Source of the DNA: Tubulanus polymorphus
Taxonomy: Eukaryota; Animalia; Nemertea
Length of the DNA: 64,000 nt
NCBI RefSeq assembly: GCF_964204645.1
Contig: NC_134032.1
Location: 2,814,175-2,878,174, forward strand
Reading direction: 5' to 3'
The notes beneath the pieces were generated by a model. The model saw only the letters and a program-made list of their open reading frames with translations. It was not told the DNA's origin and searched no databases. The translations under genes and the position numbers were made by a program. Below, one piece after another: positions 1-42,935 of the stretch; position 1 is the first letter of the stretch; each line of letters starts with the position of its first letter.

Positions 1-1371
1 AGAGTAACAGATACAATTGTTAACGAATTATTACCAATAGTTGTATTACATGAAATTGATACAGAAGATGTTGTAGAACAAATTTTTAAAGATGACCCAT
101 ATTTCACAGATAATTTAGAATTTAAAAATGATTCATGGTATTATAATGTTAATTTAAATAACAAAATTGTATCAATTCAATTATCTAGAAAGGATCAAGA
201 AAATATTTATGAACCTGAAATGCTAGCAAGATCTACAATTGAACGTTCAAAAGGTGGCGCAGAATTTCTAAGAATTATATGGAATGCACTCGATAGAATA
301 AATGAAGAAGAACCAATTCCTAAAATTGATATAAACAAATATTCACCATTTAAAAATCCATTTAAAAATCCAAATCCTACTGATTTTAATCCAGAAATGG
401 AAGAGAATAGAAATCGATTAGATAGATTAATATCTTCAACACCCGAAACATCGAGAAGAGACACTCAACCAATTGATAATTATTCAAGTCAATTACAATT
501 AGAAAAACAAATTGATAGATTAAGAGATTCAGAAGAACTGATGAATAGTGCTGGAATAAATCGACTGCAATATTTACTAGAAAAAGGATTTCTTAATTTA
601 ACTGATGAAGAATTAGAAGCATTTCCTGAACAAATACGTAGAGAAATTAAAGGTATACAAGTATCAGCTGATGAAATTGCTAATATTAAGATGAGATTTT
701 CTAAAATAACCATGTTAGAAAAAGAATTAACTAATGCAGATGAAGAATTAAAACAATTAGAATTAAATAGAGATCATCAAGTAGTTTATGAAGCTGATTA
801 TGAAAGCAGAAAGTTAGCTTTTGTAAAAGAAATAGATGATTTAGAATATAACATAAAATTACAAAAAGAAGAAAGAGATATATTATTAAAATCATATGAT
901 CTTAATCATATTAAAAAATTAAAAGTTATTTTTAAAGATTTGTTGATAAAACCAAATTCTGAAATATAATTAAAAGACAGAATAAAGTTATTATTTAAAT
1001 TAGAAGGAATAACAGTTCTTTCAATTCTAACAGCTGTAACTATGGTATTTACAACAATTGGTTTAGCAATATCAAATGCTTTGAAATCTACTCCTACTCC
1101 CACTCCCAATAAACCAGATAAACCTCCAGGTAATAATTCTATACATGATAAAGTTAAGGATGGTTTAAAGAAATTAGCAAAATATTTATGGGAACTATCA
1201 AAGAAATCTGCTGCAGCTTTACCAGGAATTATTGCTTCAATTGTTGGTTTTATATTGAAATCTGCAGGAAACATTATTAACTTTGCTGCTGAACATATTA
1301 TTTTATTTTTAATTACAGTTGTAAGTGCTATTATTTTTGGGTTAGTAAACATGATATCAAAAAATAAATAA
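1..1371 (+). pseudogene. Coiled-coil protein with C-terminal amphipathic/TM helices (copy A, 5' part outside the window)
   Basis: Frame 1 is open from base 1 (RVTDTIVNELL). ORFs 220-969 and 1042-1371 are in frame, split by TAA at 967-969 where copy B has TCA. Hydrophobic C-terminus (ITVLSILTAVTMVFTTIGLAI; LPGIIASIVGFIL). Confidence 0.75.
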
Positions 1372-1394
1372 TTAATTTTTTTGTTAAATAAATG
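1372..1394 (+). promoter_or_regulatory. Representative AATTTTTTT-N2-4-TAWATAAATG gene-start motif (poxvirus late-promoter-like TAAATG)
   Basis: TAAATG contains the ATG at 1392, 2670, 3798, 4691, 5229, 6932(-), 7384, 8138, 8480, 8726, 9169, 9620, 10961, 12712, 13991 and 15819(-). An upstream T-tract is present at many of these. Confidence 0.7.
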
Positions 1395-2639
1395 AGTGGG
1401 AGTTATATAAGTCCTTCTAAGAATCATAGAATATCTAATGCTATTAAAGCAGAAAGATCACATCATATAATTACTCATAACCCTTCAAATATTAATCCCG
1501 ATGAAACTTTATATGTTAGAATCCCTCGATTAACACAAAATACTTTTTATGTTCCAAATAGTATTTATTTATCGGCTGATATAAAAGTAATCGGTAATAA
1601 TAATAATTATGTCGTTGATAATGTTGGAAGATATTTGATTAAAAAATTAACAATAAAGATTGGTCCAGAAACAGTTTCCTCATTAGATGATTATAATTTA
1701 TTTATGCATTATAAAGTTGTATGGTTAACTAAAGAAAATAGAAATAATATGATATTTCAAGGAATCCAATCAGAAAACCAAAATAAATTAAGATCAGATG
1801 CTAATAGCGCAATATTAACTAATGATGTAGATAAATTGATAAAAAGTATATATGGAAGCAAATATAAAATTCCATTAGATTTTGAATTGATAAATAATAA
1901 TGCACCTTTATATAAATACGCAATTCAAGAAGATGTTATATTCGAAATAACATTTGCTCCTGTAAATGAAATTGTATTATCTAGCGTTAATAAAGATATG
2001 AGTTATAAATTATCGAATATATGTTTAGAATATGATACAGTAACTGATGAAAATATTTCAAGTATAATTCAAACTCAATACAATCAAGGATTTTCATTAT
2101 TATATGATTATATTGATAAATTTAAAACTGTAACTATTAATGCAAATGATGAAATAATTAATGAGAATATTAACTTTCCTAGAAGATCTATTAAAGGTAT
2201 ATTAATATTTTTTACCATTGGAACGTATACTAATGGCGCAATAAATGTTGACAATTATTATAATCCTGAAATAACAAAAGTAGAAATAACTATTGAAGGT
2301 ATAGCGAATAAAATATTCTGTCAAGGAATGAGAATGATAGATCAATGGGTAGAAATTAAAAAACATTTTATGAATGAAAAAGTGAAATCATCTGAAAATT
2401 GTAACATTAATCAAATTGATTATTATACCGGTAATAAATATGCATTATGGTTAGATTTTAGAACAACTGAAGATAACTTATTACATGGTTCTGGGAAAAA
2501 ACTACAAAATACAAAAGATGGAATACAATTATTCATAACAAAGAATAAAGGAATCAAAAATTTTAAAATGCATATTTATATTATATCTGACGCGCAATTA
2601 AATATTGTAAATTCACAATTAGATAGTATTCAATATTAG
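1392..2639 (+). CDS. Major capsid protein (double jelly-roll, Polinton-like), intact copy
   Basis: 415 aa, beta-rich (NPSNINPDETLYVRIP, LIKKLTIKIG, ICLEYDTV, RSIKGILIFF, YALWLDFRT, HIYIISDAQL). Adjacent to integrase and packaging ATPase. Confidence 0.75.
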   Translation: MSGSYISPSKNHRISNAIKAERSHHIITHNPSNINPDETLYVRIPRLTQNTFYVPNSIYLSADIKVIGNNNNYVVDNVGRYLIKKLTIKIGPETVSSLDDYNLFMHYKVVWLTKENRNNMIFQGIQSENQNKLRSDANSAILTNDVDKLIKSIYGSKYKIPLDFELINNNAPLYKYAIQEDVIFEITFAPVNEIVLSSVNKDMSYKLSNICLEYDTVTDENISSIIQTQYNQGFSLLYDYIDKFKTVTINANDEIINENINFPRRSIKGILIFFTIGTYTNGAINVDNYYNPEITKVEITIEGIANKIFCQGMRMIDQWVEIKKHFMNEKVKSSENCNINQIDYYTGNKYALWLDFRTTEDNLLHGSGKKLQNTKDGIQLFITKNKGIKNFKMHIYIISDAQLNIVNSQLDSIQY

Positions 2640-2669
2640 AAATATAAAGTTAAAATTAAGGATATATAA

Positions 2670-3797
2670 ATGGGTGGTAAAAAAACTCCTAATACTAAAG
2701 AACAATATTTAAGAAATTTATATTACAACCCTGAGAGTTCGGTTGCTTATTCTTCTACTAAAAATATATGGCGTAAAGTAAAACAAGATAAATTAGATAA
2801 GATAATCCCACAAAATTTAGTTAAATATAAAGATATAAATGAATTTATGTTAGAACAACCAACATATACAACACATAAAAAAATTGTTAGAAAATATAAA
2901 ACTCGTAAAACTATGGTAAGTTATGTAGATCAACAGTGGCAAGGAGATTTAATTGATATGAAAAATGTTAAGAAAGATAATGATGATTATTGGTGGTTAT
3001 TGAATATAATTGATATTTTTAGTCGTTATGTATGGAGCTTCCCACTTTATAGAAAAGATGCTGTACAAACATCAAATGTTTTAAGAAAATTTCTTTCGGA
3101 TGATAAACTAAAACCAGAAAAAATACAATTTGATGATGGAAAAGAGTTTGATAATTCACTTGTTCATGAACTCTTAGATAATCATAATATTAAATATTTT
3201 TCAACAAAATCAGATAAAAAAGCAGCAGTTGTTGAACGATTTAATAGAACATTAAGAACAAGAATGTGGAAATATTTTACAGCAAATAATACTTTTAAAT
3301 GGATTGATGTTTTACCAAAATTGATAGAAGGATATAATAATTCTTATCATTCTTCTATTGGAATGAAACCTATTGATGCTAGAAAACCTGAAAATGCTGA
3401 AATTGTTTGGAATAATTTATATGGAGCATTTCTTGTAGATGATTTTGGTGAACCTAAATTTAAAGTTGGTCAAAATGTTAGAATTTCTAAGTATAAAAAG
3501 ATATTTGATAAAGGATACGATCGAAATTTTACTAGAGAAATATATTAAATAAAAAAGGTAATAACAACAAAACCATATGTCTATAAATTAGAAGATTTAG
3601 ATGGTGAAGTAGTTGATGGCTACTTTTACGAAGAAGAATTAAGTTTAACTACTGAAAATCTAGAACAAGAATATAAAATTGAAAAAGTATTAAAAACAAA
3701 AACTATTAAAAGAAAAAAATATTCTTTGGTAAAATGGGTTGGATGGCCAGATAAATTCAATGGATGGATATTATCAAGTAAAATTAAAAATATATAA
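2670..3797 (+). pseudogene. Retroviral-type (RVE) integrase with C-terminal chromodomain
   Basis: WQGDLIDM, IDIFSRYVW, QFDDGKEF, VERFNRTLR (DDE). After an in-frame TAA at 3546-3548 the frame continues to YKIEKVLK...VKWVGWPDKFNGWI and stops at 3795-3797. Confidence 0.92.
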
Positions 3798-4406
3798 ATG
3801 AATAAGGAATTATTCATATTTGAGCCTCATAATATGTTAATTTCTGGTGTAACAAATTGTGGAAAAACTTATTTTATATTAAATTTATTAGAAACTGTTT
3901 ATGAAAACTATTTTGATAATATAGTATTATTTTGCCCAACATATGAATTTAATCAAACTTATGATAGAAATATTACTAGGAATAATAAATTTATTATATT
4001 AGATCCTAAAACAGTAAACGAAAATTTAGATAATTGTATTAAAATAGCAATTGATATTTATAAAGGATCAAATACATTATTTATTATAGATGATTGTGCT
4101 AATTTACATGATTCAAAAGTTAGAGAAAGTGAGTTATGCTATTTAGCTTTCTCTGGGAGACATTTTGGGATAACAACTTGGGTTTTAAATCAAAAATATA
4201 ATTCAATTGTTAAAGACTTTAGAGAAAACATAAGATTTCTAGTTTTATTCTACAATAAAGATAGAAAATCGATGAAAAATGCACTTGAGGAAAATGATAT
4301 TATTCCACATGATTTACATAATGAATATATGGATAAGTTGAAAAATATTAAAAGATCAAAATTACTATTTAGATTACAACACCCATTTAAATATGAATTT
4401 ATTTAA
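3798..4406 (+). CDS. A32/FtsK-family DNA packaging ATPase
   Basis: Walker A GVTNCGKT, Walker B LFIIDD, SGRHFGIT motif, NQKY...FREN. Confidence 0.9.
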   Translation: MNKELFIFEPHNMLISGVTNCGKTYFILNLLETVYENYFDNIVLFCPTYEFNQTYDRNITRNNKFIILDPKTVNENLDNCIKIAIDIYKGSNTLFIIDDCANLHDSKVRESELCYLAFSGRHFGITTWVLNQKYNSIVKDFRENIRFLVLFYNKDRKSMKNALEENDIIPHDLHNEYMDKLKNIKRSKLLFRLQHPFKYEFI

Positions 4407-4410
4407 ATTC

Positions 4411-4658
4411 AATTAGTTTGTTAATCTAGTTGAATTCTAGTTATTGGTAGTTGTAACAAAAATCAAATAGATTTAACAATATTTTAACTAGCTTGTTAAT
4501 CTATTTTAATTCTAGTTACATTCTAGTTGAATTCTAGTTGTTAGTAGTTGAAACAAAAATCAACTAGATTTAACAAGAAATAAACAAACACAACAATATT
4601 TCAACTAGCTTGTTAATCTAGTTGAATTCTAGTTACATTCTAGTTAAATTCTAGTTGC
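4411..4658. repeat. Iteron-like array of 11-bp TCTAGTTRMAT units with inverted copies (CAACTAGA)
   Basis: For example 4617-4657 tctagttgaat-tctagttacat-tctagttaaat-tctagttg. A ~100-bp block is repeated about 2.5 times. Confidence 0.85.
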
Positions 4659-4690
4659 AACATCACACAATTAATTTTTTTGTTATATAA

Positions 4691-5152
4691 ATGGTAGGTG
4701 AAAAGAAAATAAAATCTAAAAATGGTGATGTTCCAATTGAAAAAACTTTAGATGATTTAGGAATAACAGAAACAAAATTAATTCCAGATGATGGTGCTTT
4801 AAATAATGTTACAACAAATAATGATTATGAATATTATCTTTATTGTAAACATCAATTAGAAATATTAATAGCATCTGGAAAATGTAAAAATTTTGTTGAT
4901 AAAAATTTAACTTATAATGAATTAGATACAATGAAATCAGTTGAAATTATTAGATTATTTAAGATTCATGAAGCCGCGAGAACAGCTAAAATTAATGACG
5001 CGATATCAGAAAATGTAGTAAAAGGTTATAGTAAATTATGTAATTATATACTACCAATTGAAAATGAAAATAGATTATATTCCGATTTAAAAAATGACTA
5101 TTTAGTTATGACTGAATTAAATAAATGGATTGGATATTTATCATTTCAATAA
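4691..5152 (+). CDS. Hypothetical viral protein, probably truncated by a nonsense mutation
   Basis: 153 aa with TAAATG start. The frame continues after the TAA with hydrophobic VGFMTLLSTGVITF. Confidence 0.6.
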   Translation: MVGEKKIKSKNGDVPIEKTLDDLGITETKLIPDDGALNNVTTNNDYEYYLYCKHQLEILIASGKCKNFVDKNLTYNELDTMKSVEIIRLFKIHEAARTAKINDAISENVVKGYSKLCNYILPIENENRLYSDLKNDYLVMTELNKWIGYLSFQ

Positions 5153-5228
5153 GTTGGATTTATGACATTATTATCAACTGGGGTTATAACATTTTCAAAT
5201 ATTGAAAGTAAAAATATTTCTATAATAA

Positions 5229-5609
5229 ATGAGCGAGGTGAAAGAAGTGAAGGAATTAACTGTGAAGAAAAAACCGAGAACTCAGAAACAAATTGAATGG
5301 TCTCGGCAATTAGGAATTAAATCACAAGAATATAAAAAAGCTGTAAAAGAAAAAATAAGTAATAAAAATGTTAATAAAAATGGTGAAAATATTGTTATTT
5401 CTACTCCTTCTGATAGTAGAATATTTGATAAATATTTATATTTTACAGTTGGATTTGTAATTGTATTCATTTTGATTGGGTGTAATTGGTATAAGAAATC
5501 AAATAAAATTCATGATATTATTAATAATTCTGAACCAACTGCTATCAAAAATGAAAGTACTTCTGAAATTCCAAAATTGATAATAAAAAAAAATGGATTA
5601 ATATTTTAG
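5229..5609 (+). CDS. Small basic protein with one TM helix
   Basis: KKKPRTQKQIEWSRQLG N-terminus, TM YLYFTVGFVIVFILIGCNW, TAAATG start. Confidence 0.65.
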   Translation: MSEVKEVKELTVKKKPRTQKQIEWSRQLGIKSQEYKKAVKEKISNKNVNKNGENIVISTPSDSRIFDKYLYFTVGFVIVFILIGCNWYKKSNKIHDIINNSEPTAIKNESTSEIPKLIIKKNGLIF

Positions 5610-5682
5610 AAAAAAAGCAAAAAAAATAATTGAATATCTCACTACTTTTGTCTATCTATGCGGAGCAATTAAATTGTCCAGA

Positions 5683-5720
5683 TAAGTCATTTCGGATTCT
5701 AGATATTCATTATTTTTATT
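5683..5720 (+). repeat. ~38-bp direct repeat, copy 1 (copy 2 at 6561-6599)
   Basis: taagtcatttcggattctagatattcattatttttatt vs taaggtcattttggattctagatattcattatttttatt. Confidence 0.9.
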
Positions 5721-5933
5721 AATTTATTTTGTTTTTATTTGAATATTTGAATTTGAATTTGTTAATCAATTAACATAGTAATTGATTACTAATTTGATTA
5801 AAAATTATATCATAATTAAGTTAAAAATCCATAATTCATTTATCAGTTTTCATTCTTATATTCTTTTCATTCGGAATAATTTATAATTTCAAATTTCACA
5901 TATTTTTTTAGCACCAGCAACATTTACTTAGGT

Positions 5934-6273
5934 GTTTTAGCTAAGTATATAAGGCAATTCATTCAACCACTGGAGTGCCGCCGGGCTTGGCTTGCAGGGG
6001 CATTTCGAAAATGCACCTTTGTCCACCCTCCGTGGTTCTCCTTCAGTTTCGACTTTCGTTCCTCCTTTCGGGGGTAAGGGGTTGATAGGAAATGCATTAG
6101 GCGCCTTAAATATAATGTGTTTCCTGTCAACCATTGAAGGAGAATTGGTGAGGTGTGGGTCACAGGGGTGTAATTAGAAATGCTTGGGGATAGGTATCTC
6201 GTGGCGCCTCTCAATAACGGGATGCTTATCCCCTAAAAACTCTGTGAGTCAAGTCGGGTGGTTTTGCTAAAAC
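5934..6273 (+). ncRNA. Large structured RNA, core domain with two GGCGCC kissing-loop hairpins (family unknown)
   Basis: Nested helices: 5977-5982/6257-6262, 5984-5999/6240-6255, 6000-6006/6177-6183, 6012-6022/6162-6172, 6023-6030/6150-6158, 6034-6047/6133-6146, 6080-6099/6113-6132, 6186-6202/6217-6233; possible closing helix 5934-5941/6266-6273. About 19 G-U pairs, all compatible with the + strand. Confidence 0.75.
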
Positions 6274-6315
6274 TTACTGTAAAAACATTGAAATATTCCT
6301 TTTAATCACGAGAGA

Positions 6316-6562
6316 ATGATGACTATCCTCCTGTCGTCACGGCTGAGCTAATTTAAATAAACCTCGCTTTCAGCAACTAATGAAAACGCGGTAGTTCAAT
6401 ACCGGCTAACTGGCTTGTGTGTGTTGTATGTACTGCGTGTTTATTATATAACAACAACAATGTGCAACACCTGTTTGGTTGATCAATATTCAAATGAAGC
6501 ACTCTCTTATAATAACATGTAACAGATGTACTGTATGATTGTAGTTGTTTATAAAACGACTA
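6316..6562 (+). ncRNA. Possible 3' extension of the structured RNA or a second small RNA
   Basis: Hairpins 6317-6323/6333-6339, 6342-6347/6369-6374, 6389-6393/6400-6404, 6421-6431/6460-6470 and 6542-6550/6554-6562; four of the five contain G-U pairs. Confidence 0.45.
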
Positions 6563-6599
6563 AGGTCATTTTGGATTCTAGATATTCATTATTTTTATT
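6561..6599 (+). repeat. ~38-bp direct repeat, copy 2
   Basis: Near-identical to 5683-5720. Confidence 0.9.
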
Positions 6600-6605
6600 T
6601 TTTAT

Positions 6606-6932
6606 TCAATCAACAATTTCTAAATCATGATGACCGTCTTCATTTTTCCCATGATATATTATTTTAAATCCTACTAAATCTTTCAATTCCTCCGTACTCA
6701 ATGAAACCCATTTATCGGGTAAAAACACTTTAAATTCTCGCGATGTACTAACATTACAGTAGCTTAAATTAGCTGATACTTTCTCTCCATATTTAGTTTT
6801 TATCTTTTCTAATTTCAATATTTTATGTTCAATTTCTTTTGTAACATCAACTAACTTTTTTATTTCAAATTGTTTTTTTGCTGGTTTTATTCTGTTATTT
6901 ATTGTTGCTAAGAATGCTTTTCTATCTCCCAT
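6606..6932 (-). CDS. Small OB-fold-like (putative ssDNA-binding) protein
   Basis: KKLVDV...KTKYGEKV...FKVFLPDKW...IIYHGK pattern resembling small Polinton OB-fold proteins; TAAATG start. Confidence 0.55.
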   Translation of the reverse strand: MGDRKAFLATINNRIKPAKKQFEIKKLVDVTKEIEHKILKLEKIKTKYGEKVSANLSYCNVSTSREFKVFLPDKWVSLSTEELKDLVGFKIIYHGKNEDGHHDLEIVD

Positions 6933-6960
6933 TTATTAGGAAAAAAAATTACTTGTGGTG

Positions 6961-7366
6961 ATGAGTGGTGTCTCGCCCTCTCGCCCTCTGATCTGAAAGC
7001 CTACTTTCCCAATTACTGAGTTAACAAACACACAGTGAGAACAACAAATTATTTCTAGATAGAATTAAAGATATAACAAATGTAAAATCTGTAGATTATA
7101 AATTCAAAAAGTTAACAGAATTAACAATCCATAAGAAATATCTAATTACAAATATTGATACAGTTACTAATAACTATGGAGATAAATTAGTTATACACTT
7201 AGAATATAAAGGATTAAAAGGAAATACATATAAATTCAGAACATATTTACCGGATAGAATTCATAGATTATCAAGTGAAGATCTAGAAGAATTATGTTCT
7301 GGTGATTTCTATTTCGTATACAAAGGTAAGAATGAAAAAGGGCACAATGATATAGATTTCGAATGA
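6961..7366 (+). pseudogene. Paralog of the 6606-6932 protein, missing from the ORF track; start separated by a small insertion
   Basis: Frame 7025-7366 is open without an ATG: LFLDRIK...FKKLTEL...NNYGDKL...FRTYLPDR...LSSEDLEEL...YKGKNEKGHNDIDFE. Removing 6968-7037 gives MSENNKLFLDR. Confidence 0.75.
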
Positions 7367-7383
7367 GAAAATATGTAAAATAA

Positions 7384-8120
7384 ATGGTAGAATTAAAAGA
7401 ATACAGAATATTTGTTGATTCTAGAAAACTTACAGATTATAAATCACATAATTTACTAGTACAATTAGATAGAGAATTTAAGAATTGTGTAGATTTAAAA
7501 TTAGTTAATATAAGTTTATGTAATTCTTTTTATAATATAACGGATAAAACTATTGATCATCAATTGTTTATAGTTCAGGAAAAAATAAAAGGTATCATTT
7601 ATATCTAAAACCATGGTTATATAATTTAGATACATTGTCACAAAAAATTAATAGAAAAGCCTGGCACAAAATAGGTAGTAATTCCGGGTTTAGTATTAGA
7701 TTTTTAAAAAGTGATAGTTCTGATAAAATAAGGATTAGGTTAACTCGTAGTGAAAAATATCAATTTTTAGTTAAAAAACCTATAGCTAAACTGTTAGGAA
7801 TTACGCCAGAAAAACTTTATTCAAATGTTGATGCTACACCAAACTTAATACCTTACACACATTTTTATATTTATTGCAATTTAATCGATCCTACAAAAAC
7901 ATTCGAAGCAACTAAAGATATAACTTGTAATTCTGGTTTACTAAACATTTTACCATTGAAGAATGTTAAAGAATTTGGAACGCAAATAAATTATAATTTA
8001 ACAGAATGTGATTTCAAACCATGCATTCCTCGTTTTAATAATTTTAGATTAGAAATTAGAAATCACAATGGATATTTAATTGATTTGAATAACTTTCCTG
8101 TAATAAGATGTAGAGAGTAA
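7384..8120 (+). pseudogene. Minor capsid protein (penton-like single jelly-roll), frameshifted near 7605
   Basis: IFVDSR, ISLCNSFYNI, YIYCNLID, LLNILP...FGTQINY, LEIRNHNGYLIDLN. Two consecutive ORFs. Confidence 0.7.
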
Positions 8121-8137
8121 TTTATTTCACTATATAA

Positions 8138-8479
8138 ATGAATATAACTGTTGGACCGAGTATATGTTTTGGGTTTGATTTTAAATATGGTAAAGAAATG
8201 AGAATTAAACTAAATGATGTAATCACTGATATAAAAAGTAAATCATTTAACAATGCATCAATGATTAATAAAGAAAATTATAATATAGAAAAAGTAATTT
8301 ATTTAATTAAATCACCTTTAGAATATTATGAATTAAATGAAGTTGGAATTATTGATGATATTAAAAACATATTAACCAAAATATATGATAATCATAAAAC
8401 TAGTAATGAAATAAATGTTGAATTAATCATCACTAAGATAACTAAATATTTTGATGATAGTAATTTTTTTGATAAATAA
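8138..8479 (+). CDS. Hypothetical viral protein
   Basis: 113-aa ORF with TAAATG start in the gene-dense block. Confidence 0.55.
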   Translation: MNITVGPSICFGFDFKYGKEMRIKLNDVITDIKSKSFNNASMINKENYNIEKVIYLIKSPLEYYELNEVGIIDDIKNILTKIYDNHKTSNEINVELIITKITKYFDDSNFFDK

Positions 8480-8701
8480 ATGAGTGATAATAAGTGGATA
8501 ATAACTGGATTATATAATGGCGCATTACTATCAGTTGGAACTGTTGGTTATTCAATGGTATTAAAAAAAGTATTTAAAATGGGAAGTGATAATGTTGATA
8601 GATTTGATATAAATGATATTTAAAAATTAACGTTAGCAGTTACTTTATCTAATTTAACTATTGATTATTTGGAAAAACAAAAATATATTCCTCCCATATA
8701 A
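8480..8701 (+). pseudogene. Small two-helix membrane protein with internal stop (not in ORF track)
   Basis: MSDNKWIITGLYNGALLSVGTVGYSMVLKKVFK...DINDI*KLTLAVTLSNLTIDYLEKQKYIPPI. TAA at 8621-8623; TAAATG start. Confidence 0.65.
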
Positions 8702-8725
8702 ATGCGTAATTATTTTGCTAAATAA

Positions 8726-9151
8726 ATGGCTTCTGCAATTATAACTATTATAGGATCGGCAATTGTTAACGCTTTAACATTTACTGGTGGTGGTTATTTA
8801 TTTAAACATATTGATAAAAATGGTTCATTAACAGAACAAAAAAGACATAACTTAGCATTAGAGAAATATAATAAAGCAGCAGAAAAATATAGAGAAAAGA
8901 GGCAAAACTATATGGATTATATTAACAAGGAATTATATGATCAGAAGATTTCACATAGAGATTTTCAATCAGTTGATGATGCAATGAGTTTATATAACGC
9001 GGTAACCAATAAAGAAAAATTACATCTATACAAACCTAAATCATCAGATTATTATACCCCGAGTAAAGAACAACAGAAATATGAAATAATCTGGATTTTA
9101 GGCGGAACAGTTATTGTTATATTTGTAGCGTATAAGTTTACTAATTATTAA
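8726..9151 (+). CDS. Membrane protein with hydrophobic N-terminus, coiled coil and C-terminal TM
   Basis: MASAIITIIGSAIVNALTFTGGGYLF...EQKRHNLALEK...IIWILGGTVIVIFVAY. Confidence 0.7.
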   Translation: MASAIITIIGSAIVNALTFTGGGYLFKHIDKNGSLTEQKRHNLALEKYNKAAEKYREKRQNYMDYINKELYDQKISHRDFQSVDDAMSLYNAVTNKEKLHLYKPKSSDYYTPSKEQQKYEIIWILGGTVIVIFVAYKFTNY

Positions 9152-9168
9152 TTTTTTTGGCTAAATAA

Positions 9169-9603
9169 ATGGATGATAAAGTTGATAATATTGATAGTAT
9201 TCCTCATGATATAAATAAAACTAAATTAAAAATATATTTAGAAAAACAAATATTAGAATTTGAAAGTGACTTAAAGATAAAAAAGAAAAAATATTTAAAA
9301 AGTAAAATTATATATTATTTGATTATAAGTGGTTCGGTTACAATTAGTTCTGTAATAACATTTCTAGCAATATTCAGTCCATTAACACCTTTAGCTATAT
9401 CAATTGGTGTATTAGGATTAAGTTCAAGTGTTTTAACCGGTATAAGTTCAAAATTAAATATAAAAAGTAATAAAGAAAAAATTAAAACTAATATAAAAGA
9501 AATTAATAAATTAAAGAATACACTAGATTATATAATAAGTTTAAATGGTCATATAACAGTTGAAGAACATGATAAATTATTGAAAGAATTAATAAATTAT
9601 TAA
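9169..9603 (+). CDS. Two-TM membrane protein
   Basis: IIYYLIISGSVTISSVITFLAIF / LAISIGVLGLSSSVLTGI flanked by basic helical segments. Confidence 0.7.
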   Translation: MDDKVDNIDSIPHDINKTKLKIYLEKQILEFESDLKIKKKKYLKSKIIYYLIISGSVTISSVITFLAIFSPLTPLAISIGVLGLSSSVLTGISSKLNIKSNKEKIKTNIKEINKLKNTLDYIISLNGHITVEEHDKLLKELINY

Positions 9604-9619
9604 TTTTTTTATTATATAA

Positions 9620-11004
9620 ATGGTAGATAGTTTTCCAAAAGCTTTCCAATAAAATAAATCAATTAAATATAATATTCCAGCAATAGATTTTAATAAAGAT
9701 ATTACATATAGAAATGAAGTTTTAGATTCATTAATTGATTTATATATTTATGTTACTGAAAGTAATAATTTTCATGTAAAGATGGAAAATATATTTCATG
9801 TGTATACAATTAATTTCAAAAATTTAAATGAGGCAAAACAATGGTTATTAAAATCTAATATGAAGTATTGGCAGAACCAATTAAATTTTGCTGTTTATTG
9901 TGCAACAACAGGATGTGGAATTAGTTGGAATGATCATTTAAACAAACCAAGTTTACCATTGATGTTATCACTTTTTAGATTTCATACATATTTTCAAATA
10001 AAATTAATATTAGATGAATTAGAATGTCCTTTACCGGGTTCAAAATATTTTAAAGAATTGAATAATAATATTAATTTTTCTAAGTTTTATAAAATATGTA
10101 ATGAATTTAATATTAATTCAAATAAAGAGTTTAGAGCAAAAATTGGAACAATGGGTGGATTAGGAATATTATTTACTAAAGAATTTGGAAAAATAATGAC
10201 AAATTCAGATATAAGAACACTAAATTGGAATGAATTACCAAAATATTATAATAATATACAACAACAAAACAATAATGGTTGGGTTAATTTCTTTTTAGAA
10301 AATAGTGAAGGTTTTACTAAAGCTGGAATACTAAGAATAAATCAATCTATTAGAACTTATTTGATATGTATTCTAGGTGCACAAGTTGAAACAAGATCCC
10401 CAATAATTGGAAATGATAACACTTCATTCGATGCACAGAAACAATTTAAAGTATTATTTGAAGATTCCATTCATAATGATAAAAATAGATCGATTCCAGA
10501 AAACATTGATAACAAAGATATCAAAATTATTTAGATAAATCACATATTAGATTTAATTATTGTATAGGACCTAATCTATTAATTATTTCTAATGATTTAG
10601 TACTAAAGATGGGAAATATAATTGGTTATATTAATCTAATTAAAACTGCAACAATAAATAATTCATTTGGATTAAATGATATAAATAAAAAGATAATTAC
10701 TGCTCCAAAATTAATGGAAGGTGAAAAAAATAAAAAACACATTCAATCAACAGAAACTAAAACTAATAATATTAAATTAAATAATGATTCTGAAATGAAA
10801 TATTACAATACATCAGAAGATATTAAAACTGATATTATTCAACATGATATAATTAAACTAAATGATGATAATAAATCCCATGAAAATACTAAATTAGCTT
10901 TAACTTGTATAGGAATCGTAATCGGAGGAATATTATATTTTAAATTTTTTTATTATGTAAATGGCAGAAGGTGGAGAAGATATTGGAATGGATCCTTTAG
11001 ATGA
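9620..11004 (+). pseudogene. Viral protein with C-terminal TM anchor; nonsense and frameshift damaged
   Basis: TAAATG at 9620 is in frame with ORF 9782 (TAA at 9650-9652). WQNQLNFAVYCATTGCG, FRFHTYFQ; continues into 10609-11004 (LALTCIGIVIGGILYF). Confidence 0.65.
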
Positions 11005-12672
11005 ACCCGGTATAAGTGATGAACAACAACCTGATTTTGATGAAACAAGTTTCAGTAATGATAATAAAACGGCATATAATACTAATTTAGGTGAAGATGA
11101 TGATTATGATGGAATTAATTCCGAATTACGTGAAAAATTAATTAAATATTTACAAGCTCCTGAAAGTGGTAGAATTTCAACTAGAACAGAAAGAAAAGAA
11201 TTTATGGAACTATTAGTAGAACAACAAGAAAAATATCCTGATAAACATATGGAATTATATAAAATGAAATCTAGAGTAACATATACAATTGTTAACGAAT
11301 TATTACCAAAAGTTGTAATAGATGAAATTGATACTGAAGATGTTGTAAAACAAATTTTTAAAGATGACCCATATTTCACGAATAATTTGGAATTTAAAAA
11401 TGATTCCTGGTATTATAATGTTAATTTAAATAACAAAATTGTATCAATTCAATTATCTAGAATGGGTCAAGAAAATATTTTTGAACCTGGAATGCGAGCA
11501 TTATCTACAATTGAAGGTTCAAAAGGTGGTAGAGAATTTCTCAGAATTATATGGAATGCACTCGATAGAATAAATAAAGAAGAACCAATTCCTAATATTG
11601 ATATTAACAAATATTCACCATTTAAAAATCCAAATCCAAATCCTAATGATGTTGATCCAGAAATGGAAGAGTATGGGAATCGATTAGATAAATTAAGATC
11701 TTCAACACCAGAAACATCGAGAAGAGATATTCAACAAATTGATAATGATTCAAATCAATTACAATTAACATTAGAAAAACAATTTGATAGATTAAGAGAT
11801 TCAGATTAAGAACAGATGAATTGTATATCAGATACATCTGGTCCTGAAACTGGAATAAATCGAATACTATCTTTACTAGAAAAAGGATTACTTGATTTAA
11901 ATGAAGAACAATTGAACATATTTCCTGAAAAAGCACGTGGAGAAATTAAAGGTGTACAAATATCAGCTGGTGAAATTGCTAATATTAAGATGAGATTTTC
12001 TAAAATAACCATGTTAGATAAAGAATTAGCTAATGCAAATGAAGAATTAAAACAATTAGAATTAAATAAAAATCTTCAAGTAATAGAGGAAGCTGATTAT
12101 GAAAGCAGAAAGTTAGCTGTAGAAAAAGAAATAGATGATTTAGAATATAACACAGAATTACAAAAAGAAGAAAGAGATACATTATTAAAATCATATGATC
12201 TTAATCATATTAAAAAATCAAAAGTTATTTCTAAAGATTTGTTGATAAAACCAAATTCTAAAATATCATTAAAAGATAGAATAGCATTATTATTTAAACT
12301 AGAAGGTATAACAATTCTTTCAATTCTAACAGCTGTAACTATGGTATTTACAACAATAGGTTTAGCAATATCAAATGCTTTAAAATCTACTCCTACTCCT
12401 ACTCCCAATAAACCGGATAAACCCCCAGATAATAATTCTATACAAGATAAAGTTAAAGATGGTTTAAAGAAATTAGCAAAATATTTATGGGAACTATCTA
12501 AAAAATCTGCTGCAGCATTACCAGGAATTATTGCATCAATTGTTGGTTTTATATTGAATCTGCAGGGAATATTATTAATTTTGCTGCTGAACATATTATT
12601 TTATTTTCAATTACAGTTGTAAGTGCTATTATTTTTGGGTTAGTAAATATGATATCAAAAAATATCAATTAA
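10961..12672 (+). pseudogene. Coiled-coil/membrane protein, copy B (full length, damaged)
   Basis: ORFs 10961-11809 and 11816-12622 are in frame; frameshift near 12557. From 11273 onward it is homologous to base 1 onward. Confidence 0.8.
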
Positions 12673-12711
12673 ACATGATAAAAATAAATAATTAATTCTT
12701 TTGTTAAATAA

Positions 12712-13958
12712 ATGAGTGGGAGTTATATCAATCCTTCTAAGAATCATAGAATATCTAATGCTATTAAAGCAGAAAGATCACATCATATAATTACTCATAA
12801 CCCTTCAAATATTAATCCCGATGAAACTTTATACGTTAGAATTCCGAGATAAACACAAAATACTTTTTATGTTCCAAATAGTATTTATTCATCAGCCGAT
12901 ATAAAAGTAATCGATAATAATAATAATTATGTTGTTGATAATGTTGGAAGATATTTGATTAAAAAATTAACAATAAACATTGGTCCAGAAACAGTTTTCT
13001 CATTAGATGATTATAATTTATTTATGCATAATAAAGATTTATGGTTAACTAAAGAAAATAGAAATAACATGATATTTCAAGGCATTCAATCAGAAAACCA
13101 AAATAAATTAAGATCAAGAGCTAATGACGCAATAGTAACTCGTACCGCAGATAAATTGATAAAAAGTATATATGGAAGCAAATATAAAATTCCATTAGAC
13201 TTTGAATTGATAAATAACAATGCACCTTTATATAAATACGCAATTCAAGAAGACGTTATATTCGAAATAACATTTGCTCCTGTTAATGAATTTGTAATAT
13301 CTAGCGTTAATAAAGATATGAGTTATAAATTATCGAATATATGTTTAGAATATGATACAGTAACTGATGAAAATATTGCAAGTATAATTCAAACTCAATA
13401 CAATCAAGGATTTTCATTATTATATGATTATATTGATAAATTTAAAACTGTAACTATTAATGCAAATGATGAAATTATTAATGAGAATATTAACTTCCCA
13501 AGAAGATCTATTAAAGGTATATTAATATTTTTACCATTGCAACATATATTAATGGCGCAATAAATGTTGATAATTATTATAATCCTGAAATAACAAAAGT
13601 AGAAATAACTATCGAAGGAATAGCAAATAAAGTATTTTGTCAAGGAATGAGAATGATTGATCAATGGCCAGAAATTAGAAAACATTTTATGAATGAAAAA
13701 GTAAAATCATCTGAAAATTGTAATATTAATCAAATTGATTATTATACCGGCAATAAATATGCATTATGGTTAGATTTTAGAACAACAGAGGATAATTCAT
13801 TACATGGTTCTGGAAAAAAATTACAAAACACTAAAGATGGAATACAATTATTCATGACAAAGAATAAAGGAATCAAAAATTTTAAAATGCACATTTATAT
13901 TATATCTGACGCGCAATTAAATATTGTAAATTCTCAATTAAATAGTGTTATGTATTAG
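12712..13958 (+). pseudogene. Major capsid protein copy B, pseudogenised
   Basis: Highly similar to 1392-2639; TAA near 12850 (TTA in copy A) and frameshift near 13530. Confidence 0.85.
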
Positions 13959-13990
13959 AATTTTAACTTTAATAAAAATATATATAATAA

Positions 13991-14578
13991 ATGGAAGGAG
14001 GTAAAGTATATAAACATATTCCATACATCGATACACATGAAAATAATGATGGTTTATATTATGTAATACCTTGTAATATAGCTTTGATATTTGATCCTAT
14101 TTTCAAAATTTATAAAACTAAACTAATAGAAATAGATAATAATAAAAGTGGTGTTGTTGATAATTTAAGTAATGTAATTGATAATAATGTAATACCTTCT
14201 ACATCTAATAATGTAATACCTACTACATCTAATAATGTAATACCTACTATATATAATAATGTAATACCTACTACATCTAATAATGTAATAACTTCTACAT
14301 CTAATAATGTAATACCTTCTACATCTAATAATGCAATAATATTAAATGTTAGTGAAAATAGAAATTATTGTGATTATTGTAAAGGCGAATTTTCAAACGC
14401 TCCATCAAATTGGAATAAACATATGAATACAAATTCACATATTACTAATGTTATAGAACGTGTTGGTAAAAAAGAATTTATAGAACACCCATTTAGATAT
14501 GTTACAAAGTTTGTTTCAAATCAAAAAGTAAATGGTAAAGAATTATATGAAGATTTATTATTAGCAACACCTAATTAG
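13991..14578 (+). CDS. Protein with 8-aa tandem repeats (NNVIPTTS x~6) and a C2H2-type zinc finger; probably frameshifted at the 3' end
   Basis: 24-bp repeat at ~14183-14335; CDYC-x12-HMNTNSH; TAAATG start. Confidence 0.6.
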   Translation: MEGGKVYKHIPYIDTHENNDGLYYVIPCNIALIFDPIFKIYKTKLIEIDNNKSGVVDNLSNVIDNNVIPSTSNNVIPTTSNNVIPTIYNNVIPTTSNNVITSTSNNVIPSTSNNAIILNVSENRNYCDYCKGEFSNAPSNWNKHMNTNSHITNVIERVGKKEFIEHPFRYVTKFVSNQKVNGKELYEDLLLATPN

Positions 14579-14854
14579 ATTCAACCGATGCTATTAAATT
14601 AGAATCAAACATTGTAAATGAAATATTAGGAGCAAACACTAATAAAGATAATAATGAAAATACAGGAAAGCGCATTGATAATAAAGATTCTATCAAACTT
14701 AAATCAGAAAATAGAGATATAGTTGAGATGACTAATAAGTATATCAATAAACCAATTATTTATGAAGATACGGTAGAGCATTAGAATAAATTGTTAGGGT
14801 CTGATAGTGAAAGTGATTCAGAAATTGATTATCTAACACTCAAAAAGTAATAAA

Positions 14855-15200
14855 GGTTGAAAATTGTAAAAAATAATAGTAAATAAAAAAGGGGGTTTTA
14901 AGTATTAAGGTATTTAATACATATCTAATACGTATCTAATACGTATCTAATACGTATCTAATTCGTATCTAATACGTATTATTTGAAAATACCTTAAATT
15001 ATATTTCTTTTTTAAATTTATATTGAAACCTCAGTAATAATAAATAACCTTTATTATTTTCAAACTTATTCATATATTAGTTGAAAAAAATAAAAATAAA
15101 TTGGTTGAAAATTGTATGAATAATATTTATTTTAAAAAAGGGGGTTTTAAGTATTAATGTATTTAATACGTATTTAATACGTATTTAATACGTATTAGAT
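14855..15200. repeat. Two arrays of 11-bp TAATACGTATY units within a ~245-bp tandem duplication
   Basis: ~14915-14980 (x6) and ~15165-15196 (x3), each preceded by AAAAAAGGGGGTTTTAAGTATTAA. Confidence 0.9.
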
Positions 15201-15819
15201 AGATATATAATTAATTATTTTATACATTTATATTCATATGGAAATTGTAAACTCAGTAATAATTTTGAACCTTTATTATTCTTTAATTTATTCATCATGT
15301 AATTCAGTAGGTATAATTTGATTTTCTTCCAATGATTGTTGCGTAGATTTTTTATCTTTGTTATAAAATAAAACTAGAAATCTTATATTCTCCCTAAAGT
15401 CTTTAACAATTGAATTATATTTTTGATTTAAAACCCATGTTGTTATCCCAAATGTCTCCCAGAGAAAGCTAGATAACATAACTCACTTTCTCTCACTTTT
15501 GAATCATTTGTAAATTTGCACAATCATCTATAATGAATAATGTATTTGATCCTTTATAAGTATCAATTGCGATTTTAATACAATTATCTAAATTTTCTTT
15601 TACTGTTTTAGGATCTAATATAATAAACTTTTTCATCTTAACTATATTTCTATTATATGTTTTATGCATTTCATAAGTAGGGCAGAATAATATTATGTTA
15701 TCAAAATGATTCTTATAAATAGTTTCTAACAAATCTAATATGAAATGTGTTTTACCACAATTGGTTACTCCAGTAACTAACATATTATGCGGTTCAAATA
15801 TAAATAAATCTTTATTCAT
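15200..15819 (-). pseudogene. Second A32/FtsK packaging ATPase, frameshifted
   Basis: GVTNCGKT, LFIIDDCANL, FGITTWVLNQKYNSIVKDFREN; paralog of 3798-4406. The 3' end is approximate. Confidence 0.88.
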
Positions 15820-16936
15820 TTATTCTTTTAATTTTACTAGATAAAATCCATTCATTAAATTTATCATCATATCCTTTATATTTCACCAAAGAATACTTTT
15901 TTCCTTTAAGAGTTTTTGTTTTCAATACTTTTTCTATTTTGTATTCTATTTCATCTGGATTTGGTACAAGTGATAATTCTTGTTCATAGAAATAACCTAA
16001 TATTTCTTCATCTTTTAGATCTTCTAGTTTATAAACAAAAGGTTTAGTTAATATTATCTTTTTAATCTTGAATATTTCTTCAGTAAAATTAGGGGTATAA
16101 CCTTTATAAAAGGTTTTTCTATATTTAGATATTCTAACGCGTTGTCCAATTTTAAATTTAGGTTCGCCGAAATCATGTGTAACAAACGCGCCATATAAAT
16201 TATTCCAAACTATTTCTGAATTATCTTCTTTTCTAGCTTGTATAGGTTTCATATTTATAGAACTATGTTTAGAATTATTATAACCTTTCACTAAATCATC
16301 TAACACATTGATATATTTATATGTTTCATTAGCAGTAAAATATTTCCACATTCTAGTTTTCAATGTTTTATTAAATCTTTCTATAATAGATGCTTTTTTA
16401 TCTGAATGTGTTGAAAAATAATCTACATCGTTATCAGATAATAGTTTTTTGAAATGTTTGTTCTAAAATTCCTTACCTTCATCAAATTGTATCTTATCTG
16501 GAAAAGCTTCTTTAAATATATTCTTAAAAGCATTTGTTACTATTCCAGTTTTATTTTTGATTGGAATTGACCATGCGTATCTACTGAATATATCTATAAC
16601 ATTCAGTATCCAAAAATATCCTTTGTTGTATTCCTCTAAGTTCTTCATGTCAATTAAATCAGCTTGCCATTGTTGATCGATATATGAAACCATAACTTTT
16701 CTTGTTAAATAAGTTTTATCCATTTTCTTGTGGATTTGATATGTTAGTTGATTTTGTAACCATAATCTTAGTTCACTATATTTTAAATCACCGTGTGGGT
16801 GCCGTACGGCACCATTTTCATTATCAGATTTAATTTTATTCCATAATTCTGAAACGTTAGAATATGATACTTCACTTTCTGGGTTATAATATAAATCTCT
16901 TAAATATTGTTCTTTTTTCATCTTATTTTAATCCAT
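15812..16936 (-). pseudogene. Second, divergent RVE integrase-chromodomain
   Basis: WQADLIDM, IDIFSRYAW, QFDEGKEF*, YKIEKVLK...VKYKGYDDKFNEWI. In-frame stop at 16463-16465. Confidence 0.9.
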
Positions 16937-16963
16937 TAATAATAATCTTGGTTTATTTTCAAT

Positions 16964-17070
16964 GACGGAACGTTCTTAGTTTTGCCGCGCCTAAACGGAC
17001 TTTTTAAGAAAGATTCGGCGTTTTCTTTTGTTTTAGCGAGCATTCTGGTGTCCCCATATGCATAGCAGGT
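16964..17070 (-). repeat. Diverged copy of the 42.2-42.9 kb satellite/MITE family abutting the viral region
   Basis: Reverse complement cctgctatgcatatggggacaccagaatg...aaagtccgtttaggcgcggcaaactaagaacgttccgt aligns by eye with ~42181-42290. Confidence 0.7.
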
Positions 17071-42149: not shown

Positions 42150-42935
42150 TGGTGGCTGATAAGGGCCATAGCGTAAAATTCCTGGTATGTAAATGAGGGC
42201 GCCAGAACGCCAGAACGCCAAAACGAAAAAAAACGTCCAATTTTCTCTTAAAGTTCGTTTTGGCGCGCCAAAACAAAGAAAATTCCGTTTTGGCGCCCCC
42301 GCCAAAACGAACTTTCATTTTGGCGCCCCCGCCAAAACAACGAAAAACGTCGAAATTTCTCTAAAAGTTCGTTTTGGCGCGCCAAGACGGAGAATATTCC
42401 GTTTTGGCGCCCCCGCCAAAACGAACTTTCATTTTGGCGCCCCCGCCAAAACGAACTTTCGTTTTGGCGCCCCCGCCAAAACAACGAAAAACGTCGAAAT
42501 TTCTCTAAAAGTTCGTTTTGGCGCGCCAAAACAAAGAAAATTCCGTTTTGGCGCCCCCGCCAAAACGAACTTTCATTTTGGCGCCCCGCCAAAACAACGA
42601 AAAACGTCGAAATTTCTCTAAAAGTTCGTTTCGGCGCGCCAAAACAAAGAAAATTCCGTTTTGGCGCCCCCGCCAAAACGAACTTTCATTTTGGCGCCCC
42701 CGCCAAAACGAACTTTCGTTTTGGCGCCCCCGCCAAACAGCGAAAAACGTCGAACTTTCTTTGAAAATCCGATTCGTCTCCCTTCGATTTTGTTAGGAGT
42801 CGGATCTATATGGTGACTGATAAGGGCCATAGCGTAAAATTCCTGGTATGTAAATGAGGGCGCCAGAACGCCAGAACGCCAAAACAACGAAAAACGTCCA
42901 ATTTTCTCTGAAAGTTCGTTTTGGCGCCCCCTGGC
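42150..42935. repeat. Satellite/MITE-like array of ~30-bp TTTTGGCGCCCCCGCCAAAAC units with a duplicated head
   Basis: Head ggtgrctgataagggccatagcgtaaaattcctgg at ~42151 and ~42812. Confidence 0.92.

Follow-up and report, generated by a model that had tools for sequence, protein, structure and literature searches.

Within a 64,000-nucleotide stretch of Tubulanus polymorphus DNA (hereafter referred to as the window), we identified a multi-copy sequence whose + strand adopts a selected fold matching no Rfam family. We read it as a probable viral structured RNA of Pol III type, the unusual feature of which is its twin palindromic loops. The explanation that we favour, tentatively and at somewhat less than an even chance as a whole, is that the fold is that of an RNA, likely of 289 nt, which host RNA polymerase III would read from an upstream promoter. 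The RNA gene would be optional cargo in a variable slot of a Polinton-like element encoding an integrase, a capsid and an ATPase; its wobble-rich product would mimic dsRNA and, in the manner of adenovirus VA RNA, occupy sensors or Dicer-type enzymes of the host; and dimers or chains would arise when copies of it are linked through the two GGCGCC loops.

A branched fold of the + strand

The RNA locus and its predicted signals comprise the following features.

5911..5929, + strand: candidate proximal sequence element, −66 to −48, placed by position; within the upstream block common to divergent copies, where read depth peaks
5946..5952, + strand: TATATAA, −31 to −25 from the predicted start; the sole TATAWAW in 5730–5976 (chance in a 6-nt slot about 0.02)
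5977..6265, + strand: predicted RNA gene of 289 nt with a terminal stem, two three-way junctions and two long hairpin arms (fold, multi-copy variants)
5977..5999, + strand: 5′ arm of the terminal stem, pairing with 6240–6262 in 6 + 16 bp (fold)
5984–5999/6240–6255: helix of 16 bp
6000–6006/6177–6183: helix of 7 bp
6012–6022/6162–6172: helix of 11 bp
6034–6047/6133–6146: helix of 14 bp
6080–6099/6113–6132: helix of 20 bp
6186–6202/6217–6233: helix of 17 bp
6061..6074, + strand: small hairpin at the inner junction, capped by a UUCG tetraloop; weakly supported and missing from the DNA centroid
6080..6132, + strand: hairpin 1, 20 bp, loop GGCGCCUUAAAUA at 6100–6112, adjoining a helix of 14–15 bp (6033–6047/6133–6147); z −6.0
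6186..6233, + strand: hairpin 2, 17 bp, loop GGCGCCUCUCAAUA at 6203–6216; z −6.2; on one phased contig, all five differences in the stem are compatible with pairing
6262..6265, + strand: TTTT, the sole T4 from 5977 to 6300, located where the outer stem ends; a predicted terminator for Pol III
6333..6415, + strand: downstream segment with a B-box-like nonamer (6394–6402), variable among copies and without significant folding

All six helices that the initial annotation had proposed, of 16, 7, 11, 14, 20 and 17 bp, were found where it had placed them, each of them free of mismatches, and its description of a GC-rich island in AT-rich DNA was borne out by a GC content of 50% in 5977–6267 as compared with 25% across positions 1–17000. 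The + strand of 5930–6280 had a folding energy of −162.9 kcal/mol (z −10.1), with none of 100 shuffled sequences being as good, whereas the − strand had −101.6 kcal/mol (z −4.3). When 5977–6267 was folded by itself, the z scores were −14.4 for the + strand and −5.6 for the − strand (30 shuffles). The range suggested earlier for such a comparison, 5930–6570, is strongly folded up to 6280, but 6268–6570 is weak (z −3.4 as a whole, −1.1 and +1.5 in parts). Likewise, the limits first drawn, 5934..6273, do enclose the fold, but their outermost 8-bp helix (5934–5941/6266–6273) falls beyond the likely transcript and is simply an inverted repeat.

The six named helices contain 17 G-U pairs, and 19 of the 99 pairs predicted with a probability above 0.9 are G-U, in agreement with the figure of about 19 given before. 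The 1x1 mismatches in the fold are two G.G, with no A.C. A DNA inverted repeat in decay is expected to show G-U and A-C equally on one strand; the observed asymmetry has a p of about 1e-5 (8e-6 for 18:0, and about twice that for 17:0). Thus, 17–19 G-U against no A-C argue for a selected one-strand fold unless mutation is strand-biased, and strand-biased deamination could be an alternative source of the G-U excess. These results, together with the z scores of −10 to −14 on the + strand versus −4 to −6 on the − strand, support the earlier proposal that a single-stranded fold of the + strand is under selection.

The functional molecule is very probably RNA rather than DNA. A fold acting in cis, either as ssDNA while the element replicates, is packaged or recombines, or as a signal for processing or stability when the upstream genes are transcribed past their end, with the loops serving as protein-binding or pairing sites, seems improbable to us. 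It would agree with the strong folding of the same strand as DNA (z −9.0), with a conserved non-coding motif that adjoins the structure, with the lack of a polymerase gene among the scanned ORFs of the element and with the common orientation of the upstream genes. However, an essential signal should occur in sibling elements, which instead have iterons and AT-rich palindromes in common at other places; the structure lies between TATA and T4, its G-U pairs and UUCG are of RNA type, and it begins 370 nt past the upstream stop codon.

The predicted RNA did not match a catalogued family. Rfam returned no real match, either for the region at E 10 or for the whole window at gathering thresholds, as the initial annotation had proposed to check, and the hammerhead and HDV ribozymes, SRP RNA, RNase P RNA and MRP RNA were rejected on this basis. 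ARAGORN found no tRNA, and an 83-aa ORF on the − strand (5963–6214) had no family match. Telomerase RNA was rejected as a candidate because the match is of 6 nt (one unit of the telomere-repeat complement) and paired, and a tRNA primer-binding site because UGGCGCC occurs in loop 2 only, with its U paired.

The predicted transcription unit

The start at 5977 was deduced from the end of the stem. With TATATAA upstream and T4 at the stem end, the likely unit is 5977–6265, narrower than first given, and it is probably a Pol III unit. Passages of PMC9841428 describe type 3 promoters as having a TATA about 30 nt upstream and a T-run terminator, and PMC7589676, in the part that concerns termination, states that T4 terminates Pol III transcription. 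Ahead of the T4 at 6262–6265, the body of the predicted gene contains six runs of T3 but none of T4, an absence with a chance of 0.14. In a divergent subfamily of copies there seems, judging from the reads, to be a T4 near the 5′ end, which counts against a Pol III gene.

Internal promoter elements were not found: 5977–6265 contains no B box (GWTCRANNC) and no good A box by eye. Nonamers of the GWTCRANNC type number 22 in the window against 28.7 expected, and the downstream one at 6394–6402 was dismissed as a promoter since the motif occurs at chance frequency. This nonamer lies within a short palindrome (6389–6404), and in one contig a similar motif seems to stand in inverted orientation immediately before the promoter block. 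A Helitron 3′ end at 6389–6413 was rejected because the wrong base follows.

The type 3 Pol III RNAs (U6, 7SK, RNase P, MRP and insect telomerase RNA), as far as PMC9841428 covers them, resemble the locus in the TATA about 30 nt upstream, the T-run and the 270–340 nt class. Unlike them, the locus has no Rfam match to any of these RNAs and exists in many copies inside a virus-like element. The two hairpin stems share GATAGG in their 5′ arms, so the earlier statement that they differ holds for the arms as a whole, the similarity of which is not significant (p 0.16), but not for this hexamer. The proximal sequence element of type 3 genes is taxon-specific, and the Rfam scan of the window revealed no snRNA gene for comparison.

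Copies, carrier element and siblings

Four sequencing runs, from one study and with no RNA run among them, are listed with the stretch. From 12% of one DNA run, 2371 reads fell on 5905–6400 at a depth of 460–810, which corresponds to 70–840 copies for assumed genome sizes of 0.3–2 Gb. The reads represent at least two subfamilies. Those of the divergent one (about 170–220 reads) match the sequence before 5977 and again beyond about 6155 but nothing in between, and the upstream block kept in these copies suggests spread at the DNA level. While 109 reads extend upstream of 5912 into an AT-rich flank resembling that of the window, some contigs have different upstream or downstream flanks, and some copies skip 6278–6415.

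We scored the 40 listed differences out of 89, of which 26 lie within 5977–6267: 7 at unpaired sites, 13 that keep pairing and 6 that break it. Pairing was therefore kept at 13 of the 19 listed paired-site differences, which is not above the 60% base rate for random transitions (p 0.30). Inside helices it was kept in 13 of 14 (p 0.008) after post hoc removal of five breaks at helix ends or in a weak pair; at the sole inner break in this set, the partner base also varies, unphased. In the informative T>C / G>A class, whose members can preserve a pair only at G-U sites, pairing was kept in 6 of 9 cases as compared with 32% expected (p 0.04). One contig (6165–6313), for which all 21 differences were listed, had 5 of 5 hairpin-2 stem changes compatible with pairing (p 0.07 alone) and one loop change, outside GGCGCC. 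All scored changes were one-sided, and no two-sided phased compensation occurred among those listed.

The overall p of 0.30 would suit a neutral, decayed foldback DNA. We consider this origin scarcely credible in view of the nested, branched design, the 19:0 ratio of G-U to A-C and the presence of the same loop hexamer on different stems, where an identical 7-mer has a chance of 7e-5.

The first 17 kb of the window (25% GC) contain two related elements about 11.3 kb apart. The features around the RNA locus are as follows.

1392..2639, + strand: double-jelly-roll-type major capsid protein; model pLDDT 82.6, Foldseek matches to NCLDV and virophage capsids at E 4e-19, and the atlas
2670..3548, + strand: retroviral-type (rve) integrase, PF00665 at E 1.5e-10
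3798..4406, + strand: A32-type packaging ATPase, PF04665 at E 8e-13
5229..5609, + strand: uncharacterised gene at the left side of the variable slot, with homologues in four sibling loci (L001, L003, L005 and L020)
5618..5717, − strand: non-coding motif of 100 bp, 82% identical to 2433–2532 of sibling L003, where it lies elsewhere and inverted; overlaps the left 43-bp repeat
5686..5728, no strand: left copy of a 43-bp direct repeat, 93% identical to 6565–6606 (E 3e-11)
6565..6606, no strand: right-hand counterpart of this 43-bp repeat, adjacent to the stop codon of the 6606–6932 gene (repeat comparison)
6606..6932, − strand: small gene with a candidate single-stranded-DNA-binding fold (an atlas lead, phi29 SSB cluster at 0.88), inverted relative to L003

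The carrier is Polinton-like by its jelly-roll capsid, A32 ATPase and integrase, and the capsid-encoding Polinton-like context claimed for the locus is thus confirmed by the capsid model, its Foldseek matches and the two profiles. The capsid has 767 relatives, with no solved one found by sequence, and the protein of 5229..5609 had no homologue beyond the sibling loci. A Maverick-Polinton proper was rejected as the carrier, since the 17 ORFs scanned in the element include neither a protein-primed polymerase B nor a protease. Animal Polinton-like viruses outside the Maverick groups were already known, according to sections of 10.64898/2026.06.19.733378, 10.1101/2023.10.16.562556 and PMC11296320.

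At the start of 12 of 15 viral ORFs (1392–13991), TAAATG follows an AT-rich run. We take this to be a motif like that of poxvirus late promoters; such starts may mean that a helper virus, rather than the nuclear polymerases of the host, expresses the element, and they count against our explanation. The second element (10961–16921) is frameshifted and has its ATPase and integrase inverted, as in L001 and L005. It also has AT-rich 11-bp iterons and inverted repeats between a zinc-finger gene and the ATPase (14873–15212), and L005 has a perfect 30-bp palindrome at the equivalent place (3183–3255); this site is a candidate origin. Tandem CTAGTT-type repeats follow the ATPase or the next gene in two distant elements (4386–4660, and 3800–3980 of L022). 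On the + strand, 7025–7363 is a second, diverged version of the 6606 gene; the two stand back to back, and this one lacks a start codon and lies behind a GC-richer piece of 70 bp. The flank contains a retrotransposon protease, a SET-domain ORF and a separate polymerase B fragment at 38.4–39.1 kb.

We collected siblings from the capsid alignment, amounting to 44 metagenome and 2 genome loci, of which four (L001, L003, L005 and L020) visibly cover the slot. Close siblings have capsids that are 69–76% and ATPases that are 74–81% identical; L003 is near-complete (capsid 74%, ATPase 81%), and L001 and L005 are partial. The search for the RNA in sibling elements, which the initial annotation had recommended, turned out negative: blastn, nhmmer (5900–6600), a stem search and a covariance model found it in none of the 46 loci. 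The covariance model, of low sensitivity as it was built from the single window copy, retrieved only itself from the window and the 46 loci. The second element in the window lacks the RNA, and the 47 kb of flanking host DNA have no second copy. In syntenic regions of the siblings, the best 200-nt windows scored −34 to −68 versus −88 here.

After the homologue of the 5229 gene, L003 has a deoxynucleoside kinase gene (10370–10981, − strand; E 1e-31), L001 has an HNH-like gene (5577–6053; E 0.006) and L005 runs into the integrase; the region of the window is locally rearranged relative to L003. The kinase and the HNH-like gene at this position suggest a cargo slot.

The searches gave no homologue outside this species, in either the 46 related loci or the viral contigs. 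In the viral contigs, exact DNA patterns had no match, a loose twin-loop pattern matched at 33 loci, where stems never exceeded 5 bp, and capsid and ATPase scans found no relatives. The phage collection gave a 48-nt chance match at E 1, and two contaminated bacterial genomes gave chance 20-mers only. A low-energy region of L022 was discarded as a homologue because it is a tandem repeat. L044 has a tRNA-like head beside a capsid fragment (1613–1671, − strand), probably a host SINE or tRNA.

The 43-bp direct repeat encloses an 880-bp cassette, and the main rival to our explanation takes this cassette, RNA gene included, for a multi-copy element in its own right, either mobile or of the host, inserted here with a 43-bp duplication; the RNA would then serve that element or the host, and the viral setting would be incidental. 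We regard this as unlikely, while giving it real weight: besides the repeat on both sides, the sequence is missing from all siblings and from the second element in the window, has a GC content of 50% within a 25% element, recurs in contigs with other flanks and in copies skipping 6278–6415, and sits in a region rearranged against L003. On the other hand, its upstream TATA block is kept, unlike in a retroposed SINE, the RNA has no internal B box, the 109 reads past 5912 run into AT-rich, window-like flank, a long terminal inverted repeat is lacking, and the 47 kb host flank holds no further copy. Two specific forms of mobile element were rejected: a MITE based on the 8-bp outer inverted repeat, for want of a target duplication, and a tRNA-derived SINE, given that there are no internal A/B boxes at the 5′ end, that the upstream promoter is kept and that the flanking repeat is 43 bp long and 250–300 nt away.

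Polinton-like viruses have so far been described by their proteins. No structured RNA gene was found for them in the mostly open-access literature, judged from listings and term look-ups (including PMC11296320 and 10.64898/2026.06.19.733378 in the parts so covered); an earlier description of the sequence as a repeat may exist.

Twin GGCGCC loops and possible roles

As the initial annotation had noticed, loop 1, GGCGCCUUAAAUA (6100–6112), and loop 2, GGCGCCUCUCAAUA (6203–6216), both open with the self-complementary GGCGCC, and the hexamers have predicted unpaired probabilities of 0.91–1.0. Each loop is built of GGCGCC at the 5′ edge and then a 7–8 nt linker ending in A. An identical 7-mer in loops on different stems has a chance of 7e-5, and the loop pattern, which we picked after the loops had been seen, occurs twice in the window versus 0.06 expected. 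The GGCGCC duplex has an energy of −11.7 kcal/mol. As to loop conservation, no listed variant changes either GGCGCC, but this invariance is weak, having a chance of 0.33 for 12 nt; a common loop-1 variant, at 6108, is outside the hexamer.

Whether the loops pair between molecules is nearly an even question, on which we lean slightly to the negative. By pseudoknot geometry, loops of this design would allow the loop helix to stack on its stem while the A-ending linker crosses the minor groove, and paired loops would yield dimers, chains or rings of RNA copies. Since loop 1 is about 60 bp and loop 2 is 17 bp from their common junction, pairing between molecules should, on geometric grounds, be likelier than pairing within one.

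Palindromic loops have precedents. The dimer initiation site of HIV-1, SL1, is a GC-rich 6-nt palindrome in one 9-nt hairpin loop of the genome RNA. The locus likewise exposes a GC-rich 6-nt palindrome in a hairpin loop but has two loops of 13–14 nt, with the hexamer at the 5′ edge, in a DNA virus genome. In OLE, ROOL and GOLLD (PMC12286853) and the manA cage (10.64898/2026.07.01.735769), as these sources state in part, symmetric kissing via palindromic loops joins copies, as is predicted here. Those RNAs are bacterial or from phages, with proven assemblies and palindrome-to-palindrome covariation, whereas the present locus is in a eukaryotic element and no palindrome switch occurs among the listed variants. 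A stronger version strikes us as unlikely. In it, the two-armed RNA would use the twin GGCGCC loops to self-assemble in animal cells, with no protein involved, into rings, chains or condensates; these would act as a multivalent dsRNA decoy and be the eukaryotic equivalent of the RNA cages of bacteria and phages. With the same palindrome in both loops of a single 289-nt RNA, RNA-only assembly beyond bacteria could be tested cheaply and sharply.

The phi29 pRNA is essential, family-wide and endowed with two different, mutually complementary loops. A packaging-motor or capsid-scaffold RNA, forming a ring on the ATPase like pRNA, had been put forward for the locus, which shares with pRNA two loops per RNA, able to pair intermolecularly, and a packaging ATPase gene nearby (1.6 kb away). 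We rejected this role and consider it very improbable: the RNA is absent from siblings with 74–81% identical ATPases (0 of 46 loci, four of them visibly covering the slot, which in siblings holds a kinase, an HNH-like gene or nothing), and no essential component of the motor could be lacking in close relatives. Moreover, the ATPase is A32-type, and the same palindrome occupies both loops, unlike the complementary, non-palindromic loops of pRNA.

The hairpins, of 53 and 48 nt with stems of 20 and 17 bp, might instead be Drosha or Dicer substrates, the loops binding a processing factor, in a small silencing RNA precursor. Viral Pol III miRNA clusters exist, as in bovine leukaemia virus (PMC12498455, in the part concerned), and provide a precedent. 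Nevertheless, we hold such a precursor to be quite improbable, because the stems vary among copies and the loop hexamer, among the listed variants, does not, which is the opposite of what a miRNA would show; moreover, hairpin 2 offers little length for a 22-nt duplex, and no miRNA family matches.

Our preferred reading of the RNA as a decoy is possible but doubtful. Helices of 16–20 bp, with hairpin 1 adjoining a 15-bp helix, are interrupted by wobbles; VA RNA stems are wobble-enriched and wobbles lower sensor activation, according to passages of PMC6599070. Among the roles named earlier, the VA-RNA-like decoy fits best (wobble-rich stems, paired ends, TATA/T4 layout), but the RNA did not test as a member of the VA family. 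Adenovirus VA RNA I/II (RF00102), as far as it is described in the relevant parts of PMC6599070 and PMC7589676, is likewise small, heavily paired and wobble-rich, with paired ends and a T4 end (expression here being predicted); it comes from a related class of dsDNA virus and is dispensable or variable among types. In contrast, VA RNA is about 160 nt as compared with 289 nt, has internal A/B boxes where the locus has an upstream TATA layout and none internal, and has a tetrastem of GGGU then ACCC with a pseudoknot, where ACCC (6025) here precedes GGGU (6157). The VA Rfam model is not matched, and two long arms with identical palindromic loops belong to the locus only. Judged from its sequence, the locus would thus work like VA RNA yet stand outside the VA family by size, boxes, tetrastem order and Rfam model. 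If true, a VA-like RNA with an upstream promoter would mean that elements trade RNA genes in the slot where siblings hold a kinase or nuclease, and it would bear on the origin of adenovirus VA RNAs.

GGCGCC also occurs apart from the hairpins. In the host DNA, a tandem repeat at 42198–42923 includes eleven GGCGCC sites, and blast showed no relation between it and the hairpins; the viral contigs L049 and L071 have a stemless 36-nt tandem repeat with GGCGCCTTTAAT.
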